A stretch of 64,000 nt of DNA from an uncultured Actinomycetes bacterium (GCA_963725665.1 CAVRZA010000004.1:320001-384000), one strand, 5' to 3'. Positions 16,670-40,231 are shown, counted from the stretch's first letter. Translations and numbers: made by a program. The notes: generated by a model from the sequence alone, not told the origin.

Positions 16670-18079
16670 TCAGAACGCGAAGTCCTCGTAGTGGATGCGC
16701 CTGTCGGGAACACCCAACGACCGTGCCGTCGCGATCAGGTGCTCCATAAAGCCACCCGGACCGCAGACGTAGAGGTCACGATCGACGATGTCGGGCACCA
16801 GCCGGCGCAGGTGAGCCGCGTCGAGCGGCGCCTGCGAGCGCGGTCCGACGACTTCGTGAAGTCGTCCGCCGCGCTCGTCCACGAGCCGTGCGATCTCCTC
16901 CCGAAGGACGAGGTCGTGCTTGGTGGAGCCACGCAGCACGACGACGAGGTCGACGTGATCGGGCAGGTCGTCGAGCATGGCCCGCACCGGGGTCGACCCG
17001 ACGCCGGCGCCGACGAGCAGCACCCTGTCTGTATCACGCATGTGATGGGTGAAAGCGCCGTAGGGTCCTTCGATCGCGACCCGCGTGCCCGGCTTGAGCT
17101 CTGCCAGGGCCGAGCTGTGGTCGCCGACCGACTTGACCGTGATGCGCATCTCGTTCCCCGCCGGCAGAGCCGACAGCGAGTAGGGGTGCGCCTGCAACCA
17201 CATGCCGCGCTTCAAGAAGCGCCAGTGCAGGAACTGCCCGCCCGAGACCGGCAACCGGTCGAGGTTGCGCCCCCGAGTGACGACCGACACGACGCCGGGC
17301 GCCTCGTGTTCGACGCGCACGACCTTGAGCCGATGCCCGAGGCTGCGCACGATCGGCAGGGCGAAACGGTAGCTCAACACGACGCCGGCGGTCAGCAGCC
17401 ACACGCTGATCCAGTAGGCCCGCGCCCAGGGATGACCCAGGAACGGAGCTCCGGTAGCGAGCTGGTGCGTGAACGACAGCGCCGCTGCTAGGTACGTGTA
17501 GAGGTGGACGGCCCACCAGGTCTCGTAGCGCATCTTCTTGCGCACGTTGCGATACGAGGTCGCACCGGCCAGGAAGAACAGACCGAGCGCGGCGGCCGCG
17601 CCGAGCATCCCGGGGAAGGTCGTGACGAGGACGCCGATCTCATGCATGGCGCCGGTCGCGACTCCCTGGGCGTAGCCGAGGGTGATGAAGAGCGCGTGGG
17701 CGGCGATCAGGATGATGATCCAGGGCCCGAGCCGCCTGTGCCAGCGCACGAGCTTGTCTTGCCCGAGCGCCTGTTCGACCGCCGGTATGCGGCCGATCAT
17801 GAGGATGGTCACCAGCATCAGGTACGTGCCGAGCAGACCCGCGACGCGGCCGGCGAAGGTGAGCATGCCGCCCGGCGCGGCCAAATCGTGCGCCGTCGTG
17901 ACGGGCACGACGAGAGCGACGCTGACCGCCGCTCCCAGCCACGTCATCGTGTTGAAGAGGCGTGCCCATAGCTTGTTCGGCCGTGTCGCCTCGGCCCGAG
18001 CCCGGGAGCGCTCACGCGGCCTCCATCGGATCAGTTCGCCGGCGACCTCGGCGGCGCCGGCTTCCGACTCAATGTTCAC
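16670..18079 (-). CDS. Ferric reductase-like transmembrane protein fused to FAD/NAD(P)H-binding ferredoxin reductase domain
   Basis: TM His residues (WHR, AHA, HLY, HQL), HPYSLS, EGPYGAF, GAGVGSTP, YVCGP, HYEDF; GTG after AAGGGAG. Confidence 0.88.
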   Translation of the reverse strand: MNIESEAGAAEVAGELIRWRPRERSRARAEATRPNKLWARLFNTMTWLGAAVSVALVVPVTTAHDLAAPGGMLTFAGRVAGLLGTYLMLVTILMIGRIPAVEQALGQDKLVRWHRRLGPWIIILIAAHALFITLGYAQGVATGAMHEIGVLVTTFPGMLGAAAALGLFFLAGATSYRNVRKKMRYETWWAVHLYTYLAAALSFTHQLATGAPFLGHPWARAYWISVWLLTAGVVLSYRFALPIVRSLGHRLKVVRVEHEAPGVVSVVTRGRNLDRLPVSGGQFLHWRFLKRGMWLQAHPYSLSALPAGNEMRITVKSVGDHSSALAELKPGTRVAIEGPYGAFTHHMRDTDRVLLVGAGVGSTPVRAMLDDLPDHVDLVVVLRGSTKHDLVLREEIARLVDERGGRLHEVVGPRSQAPLDAAHLRRLVPDIVDRDLYVCGPGGFMEHLIATARSLGVPDRRIHYEDFAF

Positions 18080-18169
18080 TGGCCTCAACTCCCTTGTGCG
18101 CGGCGGGGTCGGGACGACCCCGCCGCGCGTCTCTCGTTCACAGGGCTGCGGGGGAGTGTAGCCGGGCAA

Positions 18170-18188: not shown

Positions 18189-18397
18189 AGCGGTCTCGCG
18201 TTGGCAGTTCAGCGGACTCCGGCCTCCGCCCGTAAGCGCCGCAGCCCAGCTCTCACAGACTGCCCATGACTCCCGCCCAGCCTGGTGCTGATATGGAAGG
18301 ACCTGCTGTCAAGAAGGCAGGCGCAATCGACCTTGCCGGGGGCAGAGGATGGGTGGAGTATGGCGACGGCGGGGGGAGCGCGCCGGGCTCTGTCGTC

Positions 18398-18530
18398 GAC
18401 GCGCGGTCCAAGCTGATATGCGCGGGTTTGGTCATCCGCATGACCGTCTCTGCGTCGGGAGCTGCCGCTTCTCTAAGGTCGAGCGTGGCCCGTGCGCGGG
18501 TTGCTCAATAGCACCAACGCGGATGCTCCT
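18398..18530 (-). ncRNA. Predicted IS110 bridge RNA (target- and donor-binding loops)
   Basis: Two stem-enclosed internal loops; guides TGGTGCTA and GACCTTAG match the empty target, CATATCAG matches the donor junction; RNA ends approximate. Confidence 0.75.
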
Positions 18531-18576
18531 CGCGCGCCCGGCGCGCTCGCCTCGCCGCCTTCCTGCCGACGGTGCT

Positions 18577-19653
18577 CTAGCTCTCCATCACCGCCAGGCT
18601 CCAGCACCAGCCGGCGAGCTCGCGGGCGACCGCCACGGCGGCGACCTTGGAACACTTGCCACGCTCATCGAAGCGCCGCCGGCGACGCTGCAGGCGACGC
18701 TCCGCAAGTCGCGCCCGCTCGCGCACCGTGCCCGCGGCGGCGGCGCGCGCGCGCTGCACGCGCACGCTTCTGCCCGGTGGCCGGCGCTGCTGCCAGGCGG
18801 CCTCGATGAGCAGGCGCCGCGCGTGGCCGTTGCCGGTCTTGGTGATCGCCCCCTGACGCCGCCTCGTCCCGGAGGACTGCTCGCAGGGCACAAGGCCGAG
18901 GAAGGGGCCCAGGCTGCGGCCAGAAAAGCGCTGCCAGTCGCCGATCTCGACGGTGAGCGCGAACGCGGTCAGCGTCGAGATGCCACGCAGACAGGTCAGG
19001 CGCCCGACGACCGGCGCCCAGGGCTCCTTGAGCGCCTCCGCGGCGATCGCCGCGTCGAGGGCGTCACGGCGATCGCGCGCGGCGCACATCGCCGCCAGCC
19101 CCTCCTCATAGGCGACCTGCAATGACGGCTCGCAGAAACGCTGGCGGGCGAGCCACAGCTCGTGTGTCTGTGTCCAGCTGTGCTCCTCCCAGACGATGCC
19201 CCGACGCAAAAGCAGCTTGGCGAGGCGGTGACGGTGGCGCATCAGGTCGCAGCGCGCGTCCTCGCGGGCGCGCACCAGGTCGCGGGCGGCCTCCTCGGCG
19301 AGATCGGGCACCCGTACCGCGACCAGCTCCTCGAGGCGCAGCAGGCGGGCCAGCCGCAGCGCGTCGCGGCGATCGGTCTTGACGCGCTCGCCGGGTGCGC
19401 GCGGGATGCGCGAGAGGGCCGCCACGAGGCAGCGTATCCCGGCCTCGCTCAGAGCGCGGGCCAGGACGTAGCCGGTTGGTCCGGCCTCGCAGGCGACCGC
19501 CTGCGGGCCGGGCTGCGCGCGCACCCAGCCGACAAGCTCCTTGGCGGGCACCGGTGCGGCGAGGCTGCGCACCTCGCCGCTAAGCCCGTCGAGCACTCCC
19601 GCCTGGACCGAGCGGGCGTGCACGTCCAGGCCGATGAACGAACGCTCATGCAC
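18577..19653 (-). CDS. IS110 family transposase (bridge recombinase)
   Basis: IGLDVH, EAGPTG, KTDRRDA (DEDD) and GLVPCEQSSG, ITKTGN. Confidence 0.95.
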   Translation of the reverse strand: MHERSFIGLDVHARSVQAGVLDGLSGEVRSLAAPVPAKELVGWVRAQPGPQAVACEAGPTGYVLARALSEAGIRCLVAALSRIPRAPGERVKTDRRDALRLARLLRLEELVAVRVPDLAEEAARDLVRAREDARCDLMRHRHRLAKLLLRRGIVWEEHSWTQTHELWLARQRFCEPSLQVAYEEGLAAMCAARDRRDALDAAIAAEALKEPWAPVVGRLTCLRGISTLTAFALTVEIGDWQRFSGRSLGPFLGLVPCEQSSGTRRRQGAITKTGNGHARRLLIEAAWQQRRPPGRSVRVQRARAAAAGTVRERARLAERRLQRRRRRFDERGKCSKVAAVAVARELAGWCWSLAVMES

Positions 19654-19782
19654 ACCGTCGCCTCCTTACGGCCGCGGTCTGCCGTCGCGCCAGCCGCAAC
19701 GGCGACCCGCGCCAGACTATGCACCGGGGGCGACGGGCCGTTCCATATGGTCTAGGGTCCTCTGCAGAAGCAGGCAGTCTGT

Positions 19783-19821
19783 GCCGAACATCATCTACAG
19801 ACTGTTTAATCCTTGTTAGGC
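19783..19821 (+). other. Possible attI-like site / core site opening the cassette array
   Basis: GTTAGGC (GTTRRRY) at 19815-19821 after an AT-rich stretch, 9 nt before the first cassette ORF; too short for attC. Confidence 0.35.
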
Positions 19822-19830
19822 GGGGTAACC

Positions 19831-20298
19831 GTGGGGATCTCACTCCGGCCCGTCGCGGCAGGCGACCAACCGAGCATCGACCGCTGGGCGGCGGTGGCGG
19901 CCGACCACATGTCGCGCACACGTCCCTACGCCGAGGGCGCGGACCGTCACGACCCGGACCGCGGTCTCTTCTGGTATGTGATCGCCGACGGCGGCCGCGA
20001 CCTTGGCACCGTGTGGATTGAGCTGCCTCCGGGCTCCGACGAAGCGGTCCTGGGTGTGTTCCTCGGCGATGCGACGTTCTTCGGTCGCGGCATCGGCGCG
20101 GCGGCCATCGAGCTCGCCGTCGCCGAGTTCCGCGGCGCCCATCCGCAGTTGCCGGTCTCGCTGCGGGTGCGCCGCACGAACCAGCGTGCCATCGCCTGCT
20201 ACCGCCGTGTCGGCTTCGCGGTCACCGGCAGCGGCACCAAGTCGCTGCCCTCTGGCGAGGCCGTCCCCTACTACCGCATGGTCCTCGCGCCGTGCTGA
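19831..20298 (+). CDS. GNAT acetyltransferase, integron-type cassette
   Basis: GRGIG, NQRAIACYRRVGF; bounded by GTTAGGCGG and CCGCCTAGC. Confidence 0.8.
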   Translation: MGISLRPVAAGDQPSIDRWAAVAADHMSRTRPYAEGADRHDPDRGLFWYVIADGGRDLGTVWIELPPGSDEAVLGVFLGDATFFGRGIGAAAIELAVAEFRGAHPQLPVSLRVRRTNQRAIACYRRVGFAVTGSGTKSLPSGEAVPYYRMVLAPC

Positions 20299-20325
20299 GC
20301 TACCCCTCGCGGTGTGCTCCGACCC

Positions 20326-20342
20326 GCCTAGCAAGCGCATCA
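20326..20342 (+). other. Left arm of an attC-like site interrupted by IS110
   Basis: GCCTAGC-AAGCGCATCA resembles the left arms of the other attC sites and complements the upstream core GTTAGGC. Confidence 0.6.
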
Positions 20343-21045
20343 TTGGTGTCAGTCTCTCCCCGTGGGATCCCCTGGCACTCGTCAGGTAGCCTCGGACCCG
20401 ACGGCGGAGTGACCCAAAGCGTTTCTGTCGCCCCCGAGGGGCGGACCGTCAGCTGTATTGTCCCCCGCCGCCGGGATCCGAGGGGTCGCCGACGTGACCT
20501 GATAGGAGCCTGGCCGGAAGGCCCCAGCCAAGGCGTGTCCGCCGGCGGTCCCACTGAGATCGGCTGCAACCGACCAAGGGGGACTGAAGTGATCGTAATC
20601 GGGATCGACCCGCATATGAAGACCCATACCGCCGTGGCCGTCGACGCTGCGAGCGGGCGGACGCTCGCCGAGAAGACGGTGAGCAGCGACCCGCGCGGGC
20701 ACGAGGAGCTGCTTCTATGGGCACGCGCTCTCGGTCCCGAGCGCTGCTTTGCCATCGAGGACTGCCGCCACGTCTCCAGCCGGCTTGAGCGCCACCTGCT
20801 GCCCCGCGGCGAGCGCCTAGTGCGCGTGCCGCCGAAGCTGATGGCGGGCGCGCGCTCCTCGGCGCGCACTTACGGCAAGTCCGACCCCATCGATGCGGCC
20901 TGTGTGGCGCGTGCCGCGCTGCGCGAGCCCGACCTTCCGAAGGCCAGCCTCGCCGGGCCCGAGCAGGACGTGCGCCTGCTCGTCGACCACCGCGACGACC
21001 TCGTCGGTGAGCGCCAGCGCATCCAGAAACGCCTGCGCTGGAACC
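20343..21045 (+). mobile_element. Truncated IS110 element: structured 5' noncoding region plus N-terminal half of transposase (GTG 20589)
   Basis: IGIDPH..HTAVAVD, AIED, KSDPIDA; similarity ends near RLRWNL. Confidence 0.8.
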
Positions 21046-21425
21046 TGCAGAATGGCGCTATGTGTTTGCGTGGCATTATCCGCACGGATGAAGTTGGTGA
21101 CTATCGCTTCCGTAGTATCAAGCCAGCAAGCTACCCGATCACCGATGATGGGCCTGTCGGGGGATTGCTGCGAAAACTAGGCCGACATCCTTACCGTCCG
21201 GCCCATATCCACTTTATCGTCTCAGCCGAAGGTTATCGGCCAATCGTCACTCAGATCTTCGCGGAAGGCGATGAGTATTTGGAGTCGGATACCGTGTTCG
21301 GGGTCAAAGACTCGCTCGTGGCAGAGTTTGTTCGGGTGGATTCGGCTGAAGAGGCATCCCATTATGGGTTCCAGCCGCCGTTCTACAAAGTGGAATTCAA
21401 CTTCATCTTGGATAGAGCCAGCTGA
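21046..21425 (+). pseudogene. C-terminal fragment of intradiol ring-cleavage dioxygenase, in frame with the IS110 remnant
   Basis: LRGIIRTDEVGDYRFRSIKPASYPI, RPAHIHF, TQIF, SDTVFGVK; visibly lower GC. Confidence 0.8.
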
Positions 21426-21442
21426 GGTCTTGGGTGCAGGCC

Positions 21443-21512
21443 GCCGAACCAGCGCACGCAGTTGACCGCGCTCCGCTTCGCTCCGTGCGGCAACTGATGC
21501 GCGCCGTTCGGC
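21443..21512 (+). repeat. attC-like recombination site (70 bp)
   Basis: GCCGAAC...GTTCGGC with imperfect internal palindrome GCGCA..CAGTTG..CAACTG.TGCGC and unpaired bases. Confidence 0.85.
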
Positions 21513-21545
21513 AGCCACCTGACCGAGGGCCGCGGTGAAAGCTGG

Positions 21546-22268
21546 ATGACTGGCTACTACACGAACAAGCTGTCCGGCAGCCGGCTGGAGCGCTGCTACG
21601 AGGTGGCGCCTACGCGCGTGAGGCAGTATCTCGAGGCGGAGATCCGCCACGTTCTTGAACGACTTCGGTCCACGGACTCCGTCCTCGAGCTGGGGTGCGG
21701 GTATGGACGAATCGCTCGGAGGCTCGCGACAGTTGCCCACCATGTCGTCGGGATCGACACGGCATCCGAGAGCCTCGAGCTCGCTCGGCGAATGCTAGAG
21801 CCCGGGGCATGGTGCGAGTTCATGCAGATGGACGCGCTCGATCTACGCTTTCCTGACTGCGCGTTTGATGCAGTCGTGTGTCTTCAGAACGGGATATGCG
21901 CTTTCGGAGTCGACCAGGAGGCTCTTCTTCGGGAGGCCCTCCGCGTGACACGTGAAGGCGGGATGGTGCTGTTTTCCACGTACACCGATGGGATCTGGCC
22001 CGAGCGCCTGGCGTGGTTTGAGGCTCAGGCGGCCGAGGGGCTGGTCGGGGCCATCGACTACACGGCGTCCCACAACGGCGTCATCGTCTGCGACGACGGC
22101 TTTCGTGCGGGACGAATGACCGCCGGAGACTTCCGCTCCCTCTGTTCTGAGATCGGTGTGGCACCGATGATTGCTGAGGTGGACGGATCGATTCTCTTCT
22201 GCGAGATCATCAAGCCGGGTGCTGCCCAACAGGGCGATGCATCTGACCGCGCAACGCGCTGCAGGTGA
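21546..22268 (+). CDS. Class I SAM-dependent methyltransferase cassette
   Basis: VLELGCGYGR, VVGID, FDAVVC; flanked by attC sites. Confidence 0.88.
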   Translation: MTGYYTNKLSGSRLERCYEVAPTRVRQYLEAEIRHVLERLRSTDSVLELGCGYGRIARRLATVAHHVVGIDTASESLELARRMLEPGAWCEFMQMDALDLRFPDCAFDAVVCLQNGICAFGVDQEALLREALRVTREGGMVLFSTYTDGIWPERLAWFEAQAAEGLVGAIDYTASHNGVIVCDDGFRAGRMTAGDFRSLCSEIGVAPMIAEVDGSILFCEIIKPGAAQQGDASDRATRCR

Positions 22269-22285
22269 TCGCCAGAGCGTTCGCC
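22224..22285 (+). repeat. attC-like site (62 bp) overlapping the methyltransferase 3' end
   Basis: GCCCAAC...GTTCGCC, inner palindrome GGCGAT.CATCTG..CAGGTG.ATCGCC. Confidence 0.8.
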
Positions 22286-22301
22286 CTGACTCGCCCCACG
22301 A

Positions 22302-22338
22302 TTGACTTAGGCCCACTTTGAGGTACGCTATAGCGTAC
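22302..22338 (+). promoter_or_regulatory. TA promoter with overlapping operator palindrome
   Basis: TTGACT-N16-TACGCT; perfect palindrome GTACGCTATAGCGTAC at 22323-22338. Confidence 0.7.
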
Positions 22339-22357
22339 GGTTTGCAGGAGGACCCTC

Positions 22358-22600
22358 ATGACCAGTCTCACGGCGACAGAAGCGCGCAAGATCCTCTACC
22401 GGCTTCTCGACGAGGTGTCTGAGTCTCACGAGCCAGTCCAGATCACCGGCAAGCGCGGCAACGCCGTACTCGTGGGCGAGGATGATTGGCGAGCCGTCCA
22501 AGAAACGCTGCACCTGCTCTCAATCCCCGGCATGCGCGAGTCCATCCGGGAGGGCATGGCCACCCCGATCGATGAGCTCGACGAGAAGCCTGGTTGGTGA
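22358..22600 (+). CDS. yefM: Phd/YefM antitoxin
   Basis: TATEARKILYRLLDEV..HEPVQITGKRGNAVLV..ETLHLL. Confidence 0.92.
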   Translation: MTSLTATEARKILYRLLDEVSESHEPVQITGKRGNAVLVGEDDWRAVQETLHLLSIPGMRESIREGMATPIDELDEKPGW

Positions 22601-22860
22601 GCTGGCGTCTCTTCTACACGAAGCAGGCGCAGCGGGATGCAAGGAAGCTCGCCGCCGCTGGCCTGAGGCCGAAGGTGCAGGTGCTCCTCGATCTCCTCGC
22701 CGAGAACCCCTATCAGGCACCGCCGCCCTTCGAGAAGCTGGTCGGCGACCTGTCCGGTGCGTACTCGCGGCGAATCACCATCCAGCACCGGCTCGTCTAC
22801 CAGGTCCTGGACGACGAGCGAGCGGTGAAGGTTCTGAGGATGTGGACGCATTACGAGTAG
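22597..22860 (+). CDS. yoeB: Txe/YoeB toxin
   Basis: PPFEKLVGDLSGAYSRRITIQHRLVY..MWTHYE. Confidence 0.93.
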   Translation: MSWRLFYTKQAQRDARKLAAAGLRPKVQVLLDLLAENPYQAPPPFEKLVGDLSGAYSRRITIQHRLVYQVLDDERAVKVLRMWTHYE

Positions 22861-22926
22861 GGCGAGCAGGCGCATCGCGCAGATGCCGCGCTGCGCGCGG
22901 CACAGTTCACGCGCAACACGTTGGCC
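22861..22926 (+). repeat. attC-like site (66 bp)
   Basis: GGCGAGC...GTTGGCC, central TGCCGCGC.GCGCGGCA hairpin; begins right after the yoeB stop. Confidence 0.7.
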
Positions 22927-22995
22927 GCACTAGTGAGCACCGTGCCGAAGGCTTCAGTGCTAGGCTGATGGACGTCGACGCGAAAGGGGCCTTTC

Positions 22996-23535
22996 ATGTC
23001 TGACTCCGCGAAACGAATCGTCGCTGGCGCGTCGATTGTCCTAGCGGCCGTCGCTGCCGCCATCGCCGCGGCCATGGCGTGGGAGTTCCTCACCTCGCCA
23101 CTCAACGATGACACACTGTCGTCGGCCAGCGCCATCCAGAGCTTTTCAGGAGACGCCATCTTCGTCGCCCTTGTGGCTGCCGGCCTGAGCGCGCTGGTGA
23201 TCGCTTCGGCCCTGGCAGCTTGGAGCGACCGGCTGCGGCTTGTCGTCCGCCTGGCGGCGGGAAGCATCATGGCCCTCGCGGGATGCGCTTCCGCGCTCGT
23301 GCTCGACCCGGCCAGCGCGAGCCTCCAGGCACGATTCATGGTCTACCCCCACGGCGAAGGCGTGACCGTCACAGCGCGGCTGTTCACGTTCTGGATCGAA
23401 CGCCTTTCAACGCTGTCGTGGCTCTATACGGCTTGCGCCGCCGGGATCGTGCTCACCACGGTCGTCGCGATCGTCCTGAGCAGAGGCACGTTACGGCGGC
23501 ATCGGTCGTGCTCTGCTGCGACGCCGGTCGGGTGA
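22996..23535 (+). CDS. Hypothetical membrane protein (probable last cassette)
   Basis: About 4 hydrophobic helices; follows the attC core GTTGGCC. Confidence 0.55.
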   Translation: MSDSAKRIVAGASIVLAAVAAAIAAAMAWEFLTSPLNDDTLSSASAIQSFSGDAIFVALVAAGLSALVIASALAAWSDRLRLVVRLAAGSIMALAGCASALVLDPASASLQARFMVYPHGEGVTVTARLFTFWIERLSTLSWLYTACAAGIVLTTVVAIVLSRGTLRRHRSCSAATPVG

Positions 23536-23558: not shown

Positions 23559-24191
23559 GTGTCAAAGGGCCTGACCGCGACCGCAGCTGCGGCCGGAACC
23601 TCGGCAGTGGTCCACCGCCTCGCCCGCCGCTCGGGCGTGACCGCCGAGGAGGCGAGGCGCCCGTTGCCCGGCGATGAAGTCGTCGCTCACCCGCTCTGGA
23701 CATCGACGCGCGGCATCACCATCGACGCCCCGCCGGCGGCGGTGTGGCCCTGGATCGTGCAGATGGGTTACCCGACCTTCCGCGCCGGCTGGTACACGCC
23801 GCATTGGCTGGACGAACTCATGTGGGGCAAACGGCCGCGCAGCGCCGACACGATCGTCCCCGAGTTGCAGGACCTCAAGCTCGGCGACAAGGTGCCCGAC
23901 AGCGCCGATTTCGGCATGTACTACACGGTCGCTGAGATCGAAAGGCCCGGCCGCCTCGTCCTGCACTCGACTAGGCACGTCGTGCCGCCACTGCGCACGG
24001 TCGACTTCAGCTGGGTGTTCGTGCTCTTGCCCCTGCCGGAGGAGCGTACCCGGCTTCTCGTGCGCGCCCGTGTCGCGTTTGCGCCGGTCTGGCCGTTCCC
24101 CTTGGTGGAGGCCGTCGTCGGCCTCGGCGACTTCTTCAACGCCACGGTGATGCTCAGGGGCATCCGCTCGCGAGTCACTACTTGGCGATGA
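23559..24191 (+). CDS. SRPBCC-like protein
   Basis: LPGDEVV..TRGITIDAPPAAVWPWIVQMG..RAGWY. Confidence 0.75.
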   Translation: MSKGLTATAAAAGTSAVVHRLARRSGVTAEEARRPLPGDEVVAHPLWTSTRGITIDAPPAAVWPWIVQMGYPTFRAGWYTPHWLDELMWGKRPRSADTIVPELQDLKLGDKVPDSADFGMYYTVAEIERPGRLVLHSTRHVVPPLRTVDFSWVFVLLPLPEERTRLLVRARVAFAPVWPFPLVEAVVGLGDFFNATVMLRGIRSRVTTWR

Positions 24192-24456
24192 GGAAGACCT
24201 CGTCGTGCAGCATCGAGACGCGCACCTTGTCGCGCACCTCGAGCGACCTGATCGCCTTTGCTATCGCCGAGCGCACCGTCTCCGGTTTGCGGCCTATCTT
24301 GGTGACGTTCACTTCCATGGCGGCCTCACCGGATTCCATGAAGGCCTTGACCAGGTCTGGGTAGAAAGTCGATGCCTCACGACCTCGACGCGTGGCCAGC
24401 GTCGAGATATCCCGCGGCTTCAGGTAGTCGGCTGGGTTCCATTTCTTCACTGCCAT
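24178..24456 (-). CDS. Small basic hypothetical protein
   Basis: Good RBS (AAAGGGAGG) and codon pattern; 92 aa. Confidence 0.6.
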   Translation of the reverse strand: MAVKKWNPADYLKPRDISTLATRRGREASTFYPDLVKAFMESGEAAMEVNVTKIGRKPETVRSAIAKAIRSLEVRDKVRVSMLHDEVFLIAK

Positions 24457-30607: not shown

Positions 30608-31460
30608 GGAAGGAGCTTCGCTCGTGCTGGGGTCGGGCGACGGTGTGAGCGGCGTCAACGGCGGCGAAAGGCCCAGTCGTATCGGCTTGGCAGCCACGGT
30701 AGTCGTGTGGGCCGCCGTGTTGGCGCGCGTGCTCACACTCACGACGGACACCGGCCTGCGGCTGTGGTACGCGGCGGGCCTCTCGGCCTTTCTTGTCATC
30801 CTCATCATCGTGCTGTGGCGCCGACCCCTCTCGACGGGACTGCTGCACGTCGCGTTCGCGCTCCAGTCTGCCATCGTGCTGCTGCTGCTGGCGCTGAACC
30901 CCGAGCGGGATTTCCTGACGACACTGTTCGTGCTCCAGTGCTACCAAGCCGCCATCGTCTTCACGGGTCGCACGCGCCTGGTCTGGGTAGCCCTGCTCGT
31001 GACGCTGATCGGCGCCTCGCTGGCGCTGCAACTGGGCCTGCTGCGCGGCCTTGCGCTGGCGCTGGTCCCTATGGCGGCCGGCGTCGTGTTGTCGACCTAC
31101 GTAATCGTGAATCGTGAGCTCGAGGCGGCTCGGGCGACAAGCGAACGCATGGTCGCCGACCTGCAGGTGGCCCAGCAGCAGCTGAAGCGGTACGCCAGCC
31201 AGGTCGACGAGCTCGTCAGCATCGAAGAGCGCTCCAAACTGGCTCGCGAACTGCAGGAGTCCGTGTCGCAGACGCTGTCGGCCATCCTTTCGGTCACTGG
31301 TGCGGCAGGGGAGGTGCTGGATCATCCCGACAGAGCCGGTGGGCAGCTCGAGCACCTGCAGGCGCTGACCCAACAGGCGCTCGCGCAGATGCGTGCCATC
31401 ATCAGCGAGCTGCGCCCTGCGGCTCCGGACGTCGCTGCCGACGCCGCAAGCGACGACTGA
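30597..31460 (+). CDS. Histidine kinase-like membrane protein without phospho-His and ATPase domain
   Basis: TM region then ERSKLARELQESVSQ; stops after the dimerisation helices. Confidence 0.8.
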   Translation: MAGREGASLVLGSGDGVSGVNGGERPSRIGLAATVVVWAAVLARVLTLTTDTGLRLWYAAGLSAFLVILIIVLWRRPLSTGLLHVAFALQSAIVLLLLALNPERDFLTTLFVLQCYQAAIVFTGRTRLVWVALLVTLIGASLALQLGLLRGLALALVPMAAGVVLSTYVIVNRELEAARATSERMVADLQVAQQQLKRYASQVDELVSIEERSKLARELQESVSQTLSAILSVTGAAGEVLDHPDRAGGQLEHLQALTQQALAQMRAIISELRPAAPDVAADAASDD

Positions 31461-34711: not shown

Positions 34712-35221
34712 CTACCCCGCCAGCGTCTTGCGGATGTCCTTCATCAGCATGACGAGATGTTGGGGATTCGTGGGCGACGGCTCGAAGCCGAACTTCGTGT
34801 AGAACTGCCGGGCTCGCTCGTGCTTGGCGTGCACGAGCACCGCACGGGCGCCGATCGTGTCCGCCGCGTGGGCGCATCTGCCTAGGGCCTCAACGAGCAG
34901 CGCCCCGCCGAGGCCGCGTCGCTGCTCGGATCGGTCGACGGCCAGACGAGCGAGAAGAACGACCGGGATGGCCTGCCGGCCCTGCCCCCTGGCCCTCCGC
35001 TCTGTGGTCTTTTCGGGGTTGACACTTCCCGCGGCGAGACTGAAGAAGGCCACAACTCGGCAGCCTTGGCACGCGACGTACGTGCGTGACTTCTCGGCAC
35101 GCTGGTCGGTTAGGGCGCGCTTGGTCAGGTACTCGTTGAGGGCAGCGTCGCCGCAGTCGAACGCGAGAACCTCGTGCGAGGCATTGAGCGGCTCGATCTC
35201 GAGGCGTAGGTCAGCGCTCAC
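34712..35221 (-). CDS. GNAT toxin (TacT/AtaT-like)
   Basis: FDCGDAALNEYL, PVVLLARLAVD..GLG, VHAK..FYTKFGF. Confidence 0.88.
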   Translation of the reverse strand: MSADLRLEIEPLNASHEVLAFDCGDAALNEYLTKRALTDQRAEKSRTYVACQGCRVVAFFSLAAGSVNPEKTTERRARGQGRQAIPVVLLARLAVDRSEQRRGLGGALLVEALGRCAHAADTIGARAVLVHAKHERARQFYTKFGFEPSPTNPQHLVMLMKDIRKTLAG

Positions 35222-35507
35222 CGAAGGGGCTTGGCTTCGACGCCGCTTCTCTCAGTGCGGGAACCACGCGTGCTGGACGGTCAAGCAGCGCGACAAACTC
35301 ATCCCACTCGGCTGCCGGCAGGGTGAATACCGTCTGGTCCGCGAGGACCGCTTCGGCTGAACGCAGCGCGGCCTGGAGCACGAACTGGCTGGACTTCACG
35401 CGACTTAGGCGAGCCGCTTGTTCGACCAGTGCCTTCTCTGCCTTCGTGGCGCGGATATTGAAGCGTTCGACCTTGTTGTCACTCGGGATCGGCATGCTCA
35501 TCGGCAC
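35211..35507 (-). CDS. DUF1778 antitoxin (TacA-like)
   Basis: RFNIRAT..LVEQAA..SQFVL..LLDRP; overlaps the toxin start. Confidence 0.88.
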   Translation of the reverse strand: MPMSMPIPSDNKVERFNIRATKAEKALVEQAARLSRVKSSQFVLQAALRSAEAVLADQTVFTLPAAEWDEFVALLDRPARVVPALREAASKPSPFGER

Positions 35508-38776: not shown

Positions 38777-40231
38777 TCAGCCCGCCCTCATCCGCCGCTC
38801 CGCCTCGGCCACGATCGCCGCCAGCTCGTCCTCGCAGGGCAGCGGTTCGGGGCGGGGCGCCGCGTCGAGGAGCTCCTCGACGCGGCGCCCCGCCCGCTCG
38901 GCCAGACTAGTGCCGCCGCCGGCGGTCCACGCCTCGCGTGTGGCGCGCTCGAAGAGCGTCGGGTAGTAGAGCTCGCGGCAGTGCTTCGCGGTGTGGCTCC
39001 TCGCCAGGAACTGACCGTCGGGTCCGACCTCGTCGATGAGGTCGAGAGCCAGGGCCTCGTCGCTCGTGTCGAGGGGTGCCTTGAGGTGGCGCAGCCAGGC
39101 CACGATCTCGTCGCAGATCGCAAGCTGGGCCAGCGAGCCCGTGAGACCCGATTCGAGGTAGCCGAGGTCGTGCACGATGTCGGGTCCGGAAAGCGACTCG
39201 ACGGCGAGGCTGAGGGCCGCCTCGGCGACCGCCTGCTGATCGACCGTCTTGGCGTCGCTCGCGCCGGCCAGTGAGAAGCTGGGCAGACCCACATGCCGGG
39301 CGAGGGCGATAGCGGTGGCCCGCTGGTCGGGGCTCGCGTAGCCGTAGACCATGGTCTTCATGTCGAGGCCGCCGCCGCCCCAGCCCTTGGCGACGAACGG
39401 CGCGCCTTCGCGGACAAGCTGCGAGATGACGAGGCCGGTAAGCACCCCGGCCCAGAACATGGCGATCGTCCCAGCCGGCGTGGCCGGGCCGGTGACGCCG
39501 GCTTGAGAGCCAGGGATGTAGAGCACCGGCACGCTGCGTTCCGCCAGGAAGATCAGCTTCTCGAGGGCGTCGGCATTGTGCAGTAAGCCGGTCGCGGCGT
39601 TGACGTAGCAGGCCAGGAACGGCCTGGCCGCCAGAGCGTCGGCACCGCCGGCGACGATCTCGGCCATGGCGACGGCGTCGTAGCAGCCCGAGGCGTCGTA
39701 GGTAACGAAGACGATCGGCCTGCGCGTGCGCGTCAGCATGAGACGCATCTGGTGGCGGTCGGCGATGCGGCTGTCCACATCCGCGGGTAGGAACATGGAC
39801 ATTACGTAGTCGACGTCGGTGAGGGCGTCGGCCAGGCCGACACCCTCGCCGACGTCCGCCATGGTGGGCGCTCGTCGCTCGCCGCTGCGGTGGTCGAGGA
39901 TGTTGAGGCAGTCGGAGCCGGGGCCGTAGTATGTGCGCGTCCCGTCGAGCACCATGGCCGGCTCGCCGTCACGGTCGTAGATCGTGAAGCTGCGCGGCAC
40001 GCGTTCCAGAGCCCAGTCGACGAGCGTGGCGGGGATGTGCACGATGCCGTCGCCGTCCACGGCGCAGTCGGCGCCGCGCAGCAGCTCGACGGCGCGAGGC
40101 AGTTCGAGTCGCACGCCCGTCCGCTGCAGGATCGTGACGGCTGCCTCGTGGAGCCGCTCGCATTGCCCGGCTGTGATGCGCCGGTACGGCCAAGCCGCTG
40201 ATGCCCGGTCGTGCGGCACGTCGGTGGACAC
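38777..40231 (-). CDS. Trimethylamine methyltransferase (MttB) superfamily protein, non-pyrrolysine
   Basis: GVTGPATPAG, DAKTVDQQA..E, GYLESGL, DEVGPDGQFL..HT; no in-frame stop. Confidence 0.88.
   Translation of the reverse strand: MSTDVPHDRASAAWPYRRITAGQCERLHEAAVTILQRTGVRLELPRAVELLRGADCAVDGDGIVHIPATLVDWALERVPRSFTIYDRDGEPAMVLDGTRTYYGPGSDCLNILDHRSGERRAPTMADVGEGVGLADALTDVDYVMSMFLPADVDSRIADRHQMRLMLTRTRRPIVFVTYDASGCYDAVAMAEIVAGGADALAARPFLACYVNAATGLLHNADALEKLIFLAERSVPVLYIPGSQAGVTGPATPAGTIAMFWAGVLTGLVISQLVREGAPFVAKGWGGGGLDMKTMVYGYASPDQRATAIALARHVGLPSFSLAGASDAKTVDQQAVAEAALSLAVESLSGPDIVHDLGYLESGLTGSLAQLAICDEIVAWLRHLKAPLDTSDEALALDLIDEVGPDGQFLARSHTAKHCRELYYPTLFERATREAWTAGGGTSLAERAGRRVEELLDAAPRPEPLPCEDELAAIVAEAERRMRAG

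Follow-up and report, generated by a model that had tools for sequence, protein, structure and literature searches.

Integron gene cassettes are circular permutations, and once inserted, a cassette begins at its 5′ end with the 3′ portion of its own R′ box. Their attC sites are defined by an R′′-L′′-loop-L′-R′ architecture, extrahelical bases and a GTT crossover, and the integron integrase, IntI, is a tyrosine recombinase with an IntI-specific additional domain. Clusters of attC sites lacking integron integrases (CALINs) are said to comprise at least two clustered attC sites with no integron integrase nearby. In integrons of the inverted type, whose examples come from Spirochaetota, intI and the cassettes lie on the same strand. 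Here we describe an array of short co-oriented genes at positions 19783-23535 of a 64,000-nt stretch of DNA (hereafter, the window) from an uncultured Actinomycetes bacterium (GCA_963725665.1, CAVRZA010000004.1:320001-384000). We are highly confident that it is a genuine gene-cassette array of the sedentary chromosomal integrons of a Thermoleophilia-like family, namely a CALIN with an orphan attI-like site and without an integrase in the assembly. What the analysis shows directly is how the sites are built, the signature at the boundaries, the homology of the attI-like site, the distribution in the family and the absence of intI from the assembly.

The passages on Actinobacteria in isolate-based surveys (PMC9024848) describe them as without complete integrons and regard the actinobacterial occurrences as probable recent acquisitions. 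A 2021 review names Actinobacteriota among the integron-bearing phyla, without detail in the passage concerned (PMC8618304), and excerpts of a 2026 permafrost study of metagenome-assembled genomes (MAGs) report a 'virtual absence' of integrons in Actinomycetota and mention an 'inverted' integrase orientation type of sedentary chromosomal integrons (PMC13323075). A full-text literature search gave no description of native integrons in Thermoleophilia; actinobacterial integrons may still be listed in the taxon tables that supplement PMC9024848 and PMC13323075. The array is a new case of a known kind of element, in a phylum considered nearly integron-free. It resembles CALINs (Cury et al. 2016; Neron et al. 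2022, IntegronFinder) in its co-oriented cassettes parted by attC sites, in having no intI nearby or in the assembly, and in its typical cassette content (GNAT, methyltransferase, toxin-antitoxin); it differs in retaining an attI-like site at its head and in being one of at least four such arrays in the genome. The integrons of this bacterium's relatives resemble inverted-integrase chromosomal integrons in having attC sites mostly on the intI strand, attI 3′ of intI and large arrays, whereas the window's genome has no integrase and the host phylum is new for this type in the literature searched.

attC sites and cassette boundaries

The original prediction had read three imperfect palindromes of 62-70 bp between the genes as attC sites and had proposed a comparison with an attC model. 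We used a covariance model, R1, trained on 93 attC sites that all come from arrays next to IntI in 12 other genomes; it contains no sequence from the window's genome. The training sites came from a strict pattern scan of the DNA downstream of intI, in which 93 of the 114 sites on the intI strand were kept and aligned (alignment A1); a permissive scan was dropped for the strict one, being swamped by false positives. A search of the 64-kb window on both strands, with filters off, gave 25 matches at E ≤ 10. The best three, all on the plus strand, lie at 22224-22285 (34.2 bits, E = 5.8e-7), 22861-22926 (30.4 bits, E = 5.9e-6) and 21443-21512 (26.6 bits, E = 6.6e-5), and the fourth-ranked match reached only 19.9 bits. 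The top three agree with the predicted palindromes to the base and were obtained with a model trained on the IntI-linked arrays of other genomes, which supports their assignment as attC sites. After the GNAT gene a fourth attC begins with the R′′ box CCGCCTAGC at 20324-32, followed by AA, GCGCAT and C, and is cut after about 22 nt by a fragment of an IS110-family insertion sequence (IS). Three intact sites and one truncated site are therefore found within 2.6 kb, as in a CALIN.

Two other R1 matches, both on the minus strand, were treated as false: the L box is unpaired in the fourth-ranked match, at 31140-31221, and the match ranked after it, at 35356-35426, lies inside an open reading frame (ORF) that reads as a TacA-like antitoxin. 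On the same reading, two adjacent minus-strand ORFs at 34712-35507 resemble a TacA/TacT-type pair (DUF1778-like antitoxin and GNAT toxin).

The three window sites share the architecture of the relatives' sites, that is, a 7-nt R′′ box, 2 nt, 6 bp, one bulged base, 6 bp, a bulged A, a variable stem-loop, 6+6 bp, a spacer of 3-5 nt and an R′ box with GTT. In the R1 alignments, two single-base bulges stand 6 bp apart on the R′′/L′′ arm. A gapless inverted-repeat search missed the sites because their arms carry bulges, and listed only GC-rich chance pairs. Across the 93 training sites, both partners have changed at 9 of the 12 pairs of the L helix, and 90.5% of the cells are paired compared with 22-33% when the partner column was slid; these sites were chosen partly by pairing, and the covariation figures carry that preselection.

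The cassette boundaries bear the signature of inserted circular cassettes. The predicted pairs of complementary cores, GTTAGGCGG/CCGCCTAGC, GTTCGGCAG/CTGCCCAAC and GTTCGCCCT/AGGGCGAGC, were recovered with 8 of 9 positions complementary. When the six bases after the upstream GTT were compared with the six before the cassette's own AAC or AGC, 17 of the 18 positions in the window were complementary (GNAT 6/6, methyltransferase 5/6, yefM-yoeB 6/6). The P value is 1.4e-4 when the background is set at 0.52 per position, a conservative figure derived from random R′/R′′ pairs in the relatives' arrays. In those arrays, own-cassette pairs had a mean of 5.05 complementary positions out of 6 (n = 77); the mean for same-site pairs was 3.22 (n = 93) and that for random pairs 3.12.

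Orphan attI-like sites and the missing integrase

An attI-like site stands at the head of the array. Neither this site nor the two IS110-family elements of the region had been noticed in the original prediction, which saw an array without an integrase; the absence of IntI from the assembly stands, and the picture was incomplete in that the attI-like site is retained. The site lies on the plus strand, and its left part (18244-18289), a possible promoter region, is parted from its right part (19748-19817) by IS110 no. 1. The right part ends in ...CAGACTGTTTAATCCTT|GTT, with the presumed crossover G|TT at 19815-19817, and shares 88% and 81% identity with the genome's two other copies. In these uninterrupted copies, at G000:C11:457749-457871 (minus strand) and C2:226913-227016, the counterparts of 18244-18289 and 19748-19822 are contiguous. 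The homology of all three copies stops at ...AATCCTT|GTT, after which unlike cassettes begin (GTTAGGCGG, GTTGGGCGC and GTTCGGCAT). The same element, with the end CAGACTG(T/C)NTAAT..TT|GTT, is found directly 3′ of intI and on the same strand in relatives (L019, L023 and L025, three of the ten loci searched by motif, and also L116, L117 and L140). Judged by its position and homology, this conserved element of about 105 nt, present in three copies in the window's genome, is the probable attI region of the family. In the attI alignment, a TAGGGT/TAGCGT/TATGGT hexamer is conserved about 60 nt ahead of the GTT and may be a cassette promoter; IS110 no. 1 splits it in the window.

IS110 no. 1 occupies 18290-19756 (ends approximate) on the minus strand, with a transposase ORF at 18577-19653 (Pfam DEDD_Tnp_IS110 and Transposase_20). 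An empty-site comparison with the C11 and C2 copies places its insertion point inside ...CTGGTGCT|AGGGTC.... CT occurs at each junction of the element (GGTGCT|GATATGG ... ATATGGTCT|AGGGTC), its terminal inverted repeats are short (ATATGGAA / TTCCATAT), and its relatives elsewhere in the genome are only 66-67% identical. A recombination-type origin of the left boundary of the orphan attI copies was considered and rejected, as no GTT/AAC-type junction is found there. A dispersed repeat of about 60-80 nt in two other genomes (L121-L131; eight matches in G068 and five in G079) corresponds only to the middle, promoter-like part of the attI element (...CCATGACACCC...CTGCTGCTAGGGTC...). These repeats were rejected as attI sites because they have no AATCCTT|GTT end and no attC within about 400 nt of downstream sequence.

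The window's genome holds at least four attI-led or attC arrays. The whole-genome R1 search gave at least 10 sites at E ≤ 1 in 3.73 Mb, at five loci, with 150 of the 7940 candidates scored. Three of them follow the second attI, on contig C11, and two follow the third, on C2; C1 has a pair at 72.9-73.7 kb and a solitary site at C1:545236, and the remaining two are among the three window sites. Two of the three attC sites of the C11 array have 9/9 boundary complementarity.

The array on C11 (G000:C11:456016-457871, minus strand; L017) includes a membrane-protein cassette, a cassette with a 118-aa ORF, a seemingly disrupted paralogue of the GNAT gene and a minus-strand ORF of 121 aa, and seems to be truncated by a gene that reads as an IS21-type helper (IstB-like). 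The third attI-led array (G000:C2:226913-228061; L018) has a cassette with a small frameshifted ORF and a methyltransferase cassette, its second attC is without a clear R′ end, and the neighboring genes read as a TetR-like regulator and an MFS-type transporter. In the fourth array (G000:C1:72944-75340, minus strand), BLAST found no attI copy, and one R′ core is GTC, not GTT. The solitary attC-like site spans C1:545236-545321.

The assembly comprises 12 contigs and is 97.5% complete. As the criterion for IntI we used a TIGR02249 score over the 265-bit cut-off, and none of the 14 TIGR02249 matches in the assembly reached it, the best piece scoring 85.9 bits. The two best tyrosine recombinases of the genome are of the XerC/D type, with 331 and 294 bits on NF001399 and 149 and 119 bits on TIGR02249; an array-adjoining IntI of the relative G008 scores 488 bits on TIGR02249. 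The proposal that IntI was lost or is located elsewhere agrees with these results as far as the assembled genome is concerned. Since no intI is present in the assembled genome, the array in its current state is a CALIN headed by an orphan attI-like site.

Related integrons and alternative readings

The original prediction had placed the window in an actinobacterial genome, and the SecA protein bears this out: its best relative among public genomes is from an uncultured Thermoleophilia MAG (74% identity), and the next are from Thermoleophilia, Gaiellaceae and other Actinomycetota (50-62%). Integrons are widespread in the family. IntI over the cut-off was found in 47 of 89 species genomes and attC sites (E ≤ 1e-6) in 79, and at least 32 of the 89, many of them incomplete MAGs, have attC without IntI over the cut-off. 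By genus, attC occurs in 10 of 11 and IntI at E ≤ 1e-30 in 8 of 11; in genus g2, where many genomes are incomplete MAGs, attC was found in 12 of 12 genomes and an IntI match (E ≤ 1e-30) in 2 of 12. When the phylum was sampled evenly, IntI over the cut-off turned up in 23 of 401 genomes (21 of 399 without the unpublished G177 and G240), concentrated in a few families. The strict attC scan of 12 loci downstream of intI gave 114 matches on the intI strand and 18 on the other. In the relatives, attI lies about 100 nt 3′ of intI, and the array of G010 has at least 25 attC sites in 15 kb.

The genes flanking the array, a ferric-reductase-like gene (16670-18169) and a gene at 24187-24456, keep their synteny in G015, G001 and G010, with about 300 bp between them in G010, and no attC was found at the syntenic locus in any of the three genomes. 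Homologues of yefM-yoeB (72-85% amino-acid identity) lie between attC sites in G003 (twice), G014 and G094, and in the IntI-linked arrays of G096, G008 and G010 (L113, L109 and L110), homologues of the GNAT gene (55-78% amino-acid identity) directly follow an attC site or are flanked by two. An identical gene order in relatives, which would have spoken against cassettes, is excluded by the empty syntenic locus and by these homologues in arrays of other genera.

The array could instead be part of a mobile integron, carried on a plasmid or transposon, that came recently from a Gram-negative donor. The cassettes have a lower GC content than the backbone, IS elements flank and interrupt the array, and the survey passages cited above call actinobacterial cases probable recent acquisitions (PMC9024848). 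However, the attI and attC types are those of the family's own chromosomal integrons, with attC in 10 and IntI in 8 of the 11 genera, the array lies between chromosomal genes, and Pfam found no Tn402-like transposition genes or resistance genes in it. We regard such an acquisition as highly improbable.

Several points weigh against a genuine cassette array. Folding of the bottom strands had been proposed as a check and succeeded only in part: the canonical hairpin is the minimum-energy structure at 21443-21512 but not at the other two sites, and the folds beat shuffles modestly, with z-scores of only -1.92, -1.84 and -0.82. Because minimum-energy folding was weak, we relied on the covariance model. 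Two R′′ cores in the window read AGC, not AAC, and the window sites score 26-34 bits, compared with 70-85 bits for the best sites of the relatives; these cores and scores suggest decay. The third window site is not among the 10 whole-genome matches, for which 150 of 7940 candidates were scored. The attI function is deduced from position and homology, and the three attI copies adjoin unrelated genes with no intI remnant. A consensus promoter scan found neither the attI-region promoter nor that of the toxin-antitoxin cassette; the one promoter-like site in the promoter and terminator scan (0.4 expected) is irrelevant. Finally, the assembly has no integrase, and we therefore make no claim of recombination activity for the organism.

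The modest folds (z-scores of -0.8 to -1.9), in a GC-rich genome where imperfect hairpins are frequent, would also fit palindromes that are intergenic repeats similar to repetitive extragenic palindromic (REP) elements or terminators, with the core complementarity a coincidence. Genome-wide repeats of this kind are ruled out by the R1 matches, of which at least 10 at E ≤ 1 were found in 3.73 Mb, clustered in arrays at five loci. Furthermore, R1 was trained on sites that adjoin IntI in other genomes, the P value of the boundary signature is 1.4e-4, and homologous cassettes occur in IntI-linked arrays. A search with 4227 Rfam families gave none at the gathering score in the region; among six matches at E ≤ 10, the best reached 20.9 bits against a gathering score of 42. 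The repeat reading is effectively refuted.

The integrase could also be encoded in the unassembled or unbinned part of the genome, about 2.5%, in which case the array would be an active satellite served in trans. The assembly, in 12 contigs and 97.5% complete, leaves room for it, and the three attI copies are conserved up to the crossover. Five relatives with a single intI (G063, G005, G078, G081 and G073) have extra attI copies elsewhere in the genome, and attC sites lie downstream of the orphan attI in three of them (G073, G078 and G005). However, no intI fragment was found on any contig or contig end, and attC without IntI over the cut-off is common in the family (at least 32 of 89 genomes, many incomplete). 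In addition, the attI split and one attC destroyed by IS110 elements, the low site scores and the AGC cores point to decay rather than maintenance. An active satellite is therefore unlikely, and we retain the reading of a CALIN that has kept its attI.

Cassettes, insertion sequences and proposed history

The sequence features listed in the original prediction were all found where it had placed them. The first cassette (19816-20345; ORF 19813-20298), like all those that follow, is on the plus strand; it encodes a GNAT acetyltransferase by Pfam and includes the 5′ part of its own attC. The next gene had been called a dioxygenase fragment, which holds for its C-terminal part: in the ORF at 20292-21425, Pfam finds Dioxygenase_C at profile positions 71-181 of 182. 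The N-terminal part is a truncated IS110 transposase that had been overlooked, with PF01548 at residues 103-253 (63.2 bits). The dioxygenase cassette remnant (21046-21512) consists of the C-terminal 125 codons, has lower GC, and ends with the intact attC at 21443-21512. It is followed by the cassette of a SAM-dependent class I methyltransferase (21507-22285; ORF 21546-22268; Pfam Methyltransf_25 and Methyltransf_11), with its attC at 22224-22285, and by the yefM-yoeB cassette (22280-22926), with yefM at 22358-22600, yoeB at 22594-22860 and attC at 22861-22926. After the last attC comes a membrane-protein ORF (22996-23535, in the segment 22927-23535). It matches no Pfam family and has no homologue in the loci or genome searched, and no R1 attC match lies downstream of it; it is a final cassette that has no site of its own, or else flanking DNA. 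No drug-resistance family was matched when the cassette ORFs were scanned against Pfam.

The composition of the array differs from that of its surroundings. The GC content per kilobase falls to 0.600 (21001-22000) and 0.637 in the array, compared with 0.66-0.75 in most other 1-kb segments, and the GC content at third codon positions (GC3) is 0.73-0.86 in the cassette ORFs of 20292-22860, compared with mostly 0.85-0.95 in the flanking genes. The GNAT ORF has a GC3 of 0.87, which is not lowered. Elsewhere in the window, an MttB-family (trimethylamine methyltransferase) ORF of 484 aa lies on the minus strand at 38777-40231 and is uninterrupted under table 11.

The assignment of yefM-yoeB as a type II toxin-antitoxin system is supported by Pfam (Phd/YefM antitoxin PF02604, 66.4 bits; YoeB/ParE-fold toxin PF06769, 39.1 bits, and PF05016, 35.7 bits) and by the 7-nt overlap of the two ORFs. 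Upstream of yefM, TTGACT (22302-07) and TACGCT (22324-29), 16 nt apart, were read by eye, and a perfect 16-nt palindrome, GTACGCTATAGCGTAC (22323-22338), overlaps the second hexamer. The segment 22302-22338 is thus a candidate for an autoregulated promoter and operator. Toxin-antitoxin cassettes of the yefM-yoeB type are known from Vibrio superintegrons. Like those, the two-gene module in the window is a single cassette, with a putative promoter and palindromic operator of its own, and it recurs in arrays of the family; the difference is that a stabilizing role is only presumed for the window cassette.

IS110 no. 2 (20346-21045, plus strand) sits in the attC of the GNAT cassette and consists of a non-coding left end of about 245 nt and the N-terminal DEDD domain of the transposase, its own 3′ part being deleted. 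It is 79% identical to an element in the integron of G012, and copies with 79-85% identity occur in relatives. The G012 element (L111, about position 2925) is inserted at the same attC point as the element at window position 20346 (...AAC AA GCNCAT C (A)TTGGTG|TCA...), which suggests, from two insertions, that this type of element targets attC specifically. A group of IS110-family insertion sequences, IS1111-attC, targets attC sites. The window element shares with the attC-targeting members of the family a DEDD transposase and an attC insertion, although only two insertions are available; as in the IS1111-attC group, it lies inside the L′′ arm of an attC, in one orientation and at the same position in two genomes. 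It differs from that group in its long non-coding stretch 5′ of the transposase gene, which we take to be the layout of the IS110 subgroup rather than that of IS1111, and in that the window copy is truncated.

Considering the boundary signature, we propose that an IntI tyrosine recombinase inserted the cassettes singly, in circular form, by recombining attI with attC, which would have given, from the GTT at 19815 of the attI-like site, the order GNAT, dioxygenase, methyltransferase and yefM-yoeB. IS110 no. 1 would then have split attI together with its possible promoter region, and IS110 no. 2 would have landed in the GNAT attC. A later deletion may have removed the 3′ part of IS110 no. 2 and the 5′ part of the dioxygenase cassette, fusing the element to the C-terminal third of the latter. 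With no intI in the assembled genome, the array would be static, and it is probably frozen unless an integrase is supplied in trans. The toxin-antitoxin cassette probably stabilizes what remains of the array.

For the family as a whole, we tentatively suggest a distributed system, as a possibility that falls somewhat short of an even chance. In such a system, one intI, co-oriented with its cassettes, would serve dispersed attI-led satellite arrays in trans, and the IS110-family elements that target attC and attI would antagonize the platform. The window's genome would have lost the integrase and kept at least four frozen arrays. These genomes may offer a natural setting in which to study how integrons recombine in a high-GC Gram-positive background, and the orphan attI sites provide a way to ask how arrays disperse; IS110 elements with attC or attI specificity are also on offer. 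If the reading is true, native integrons would be normal in a lineage of high-GC Gram-positive bacteria, which contradicts the view of Actinomycetota as essentially without them.

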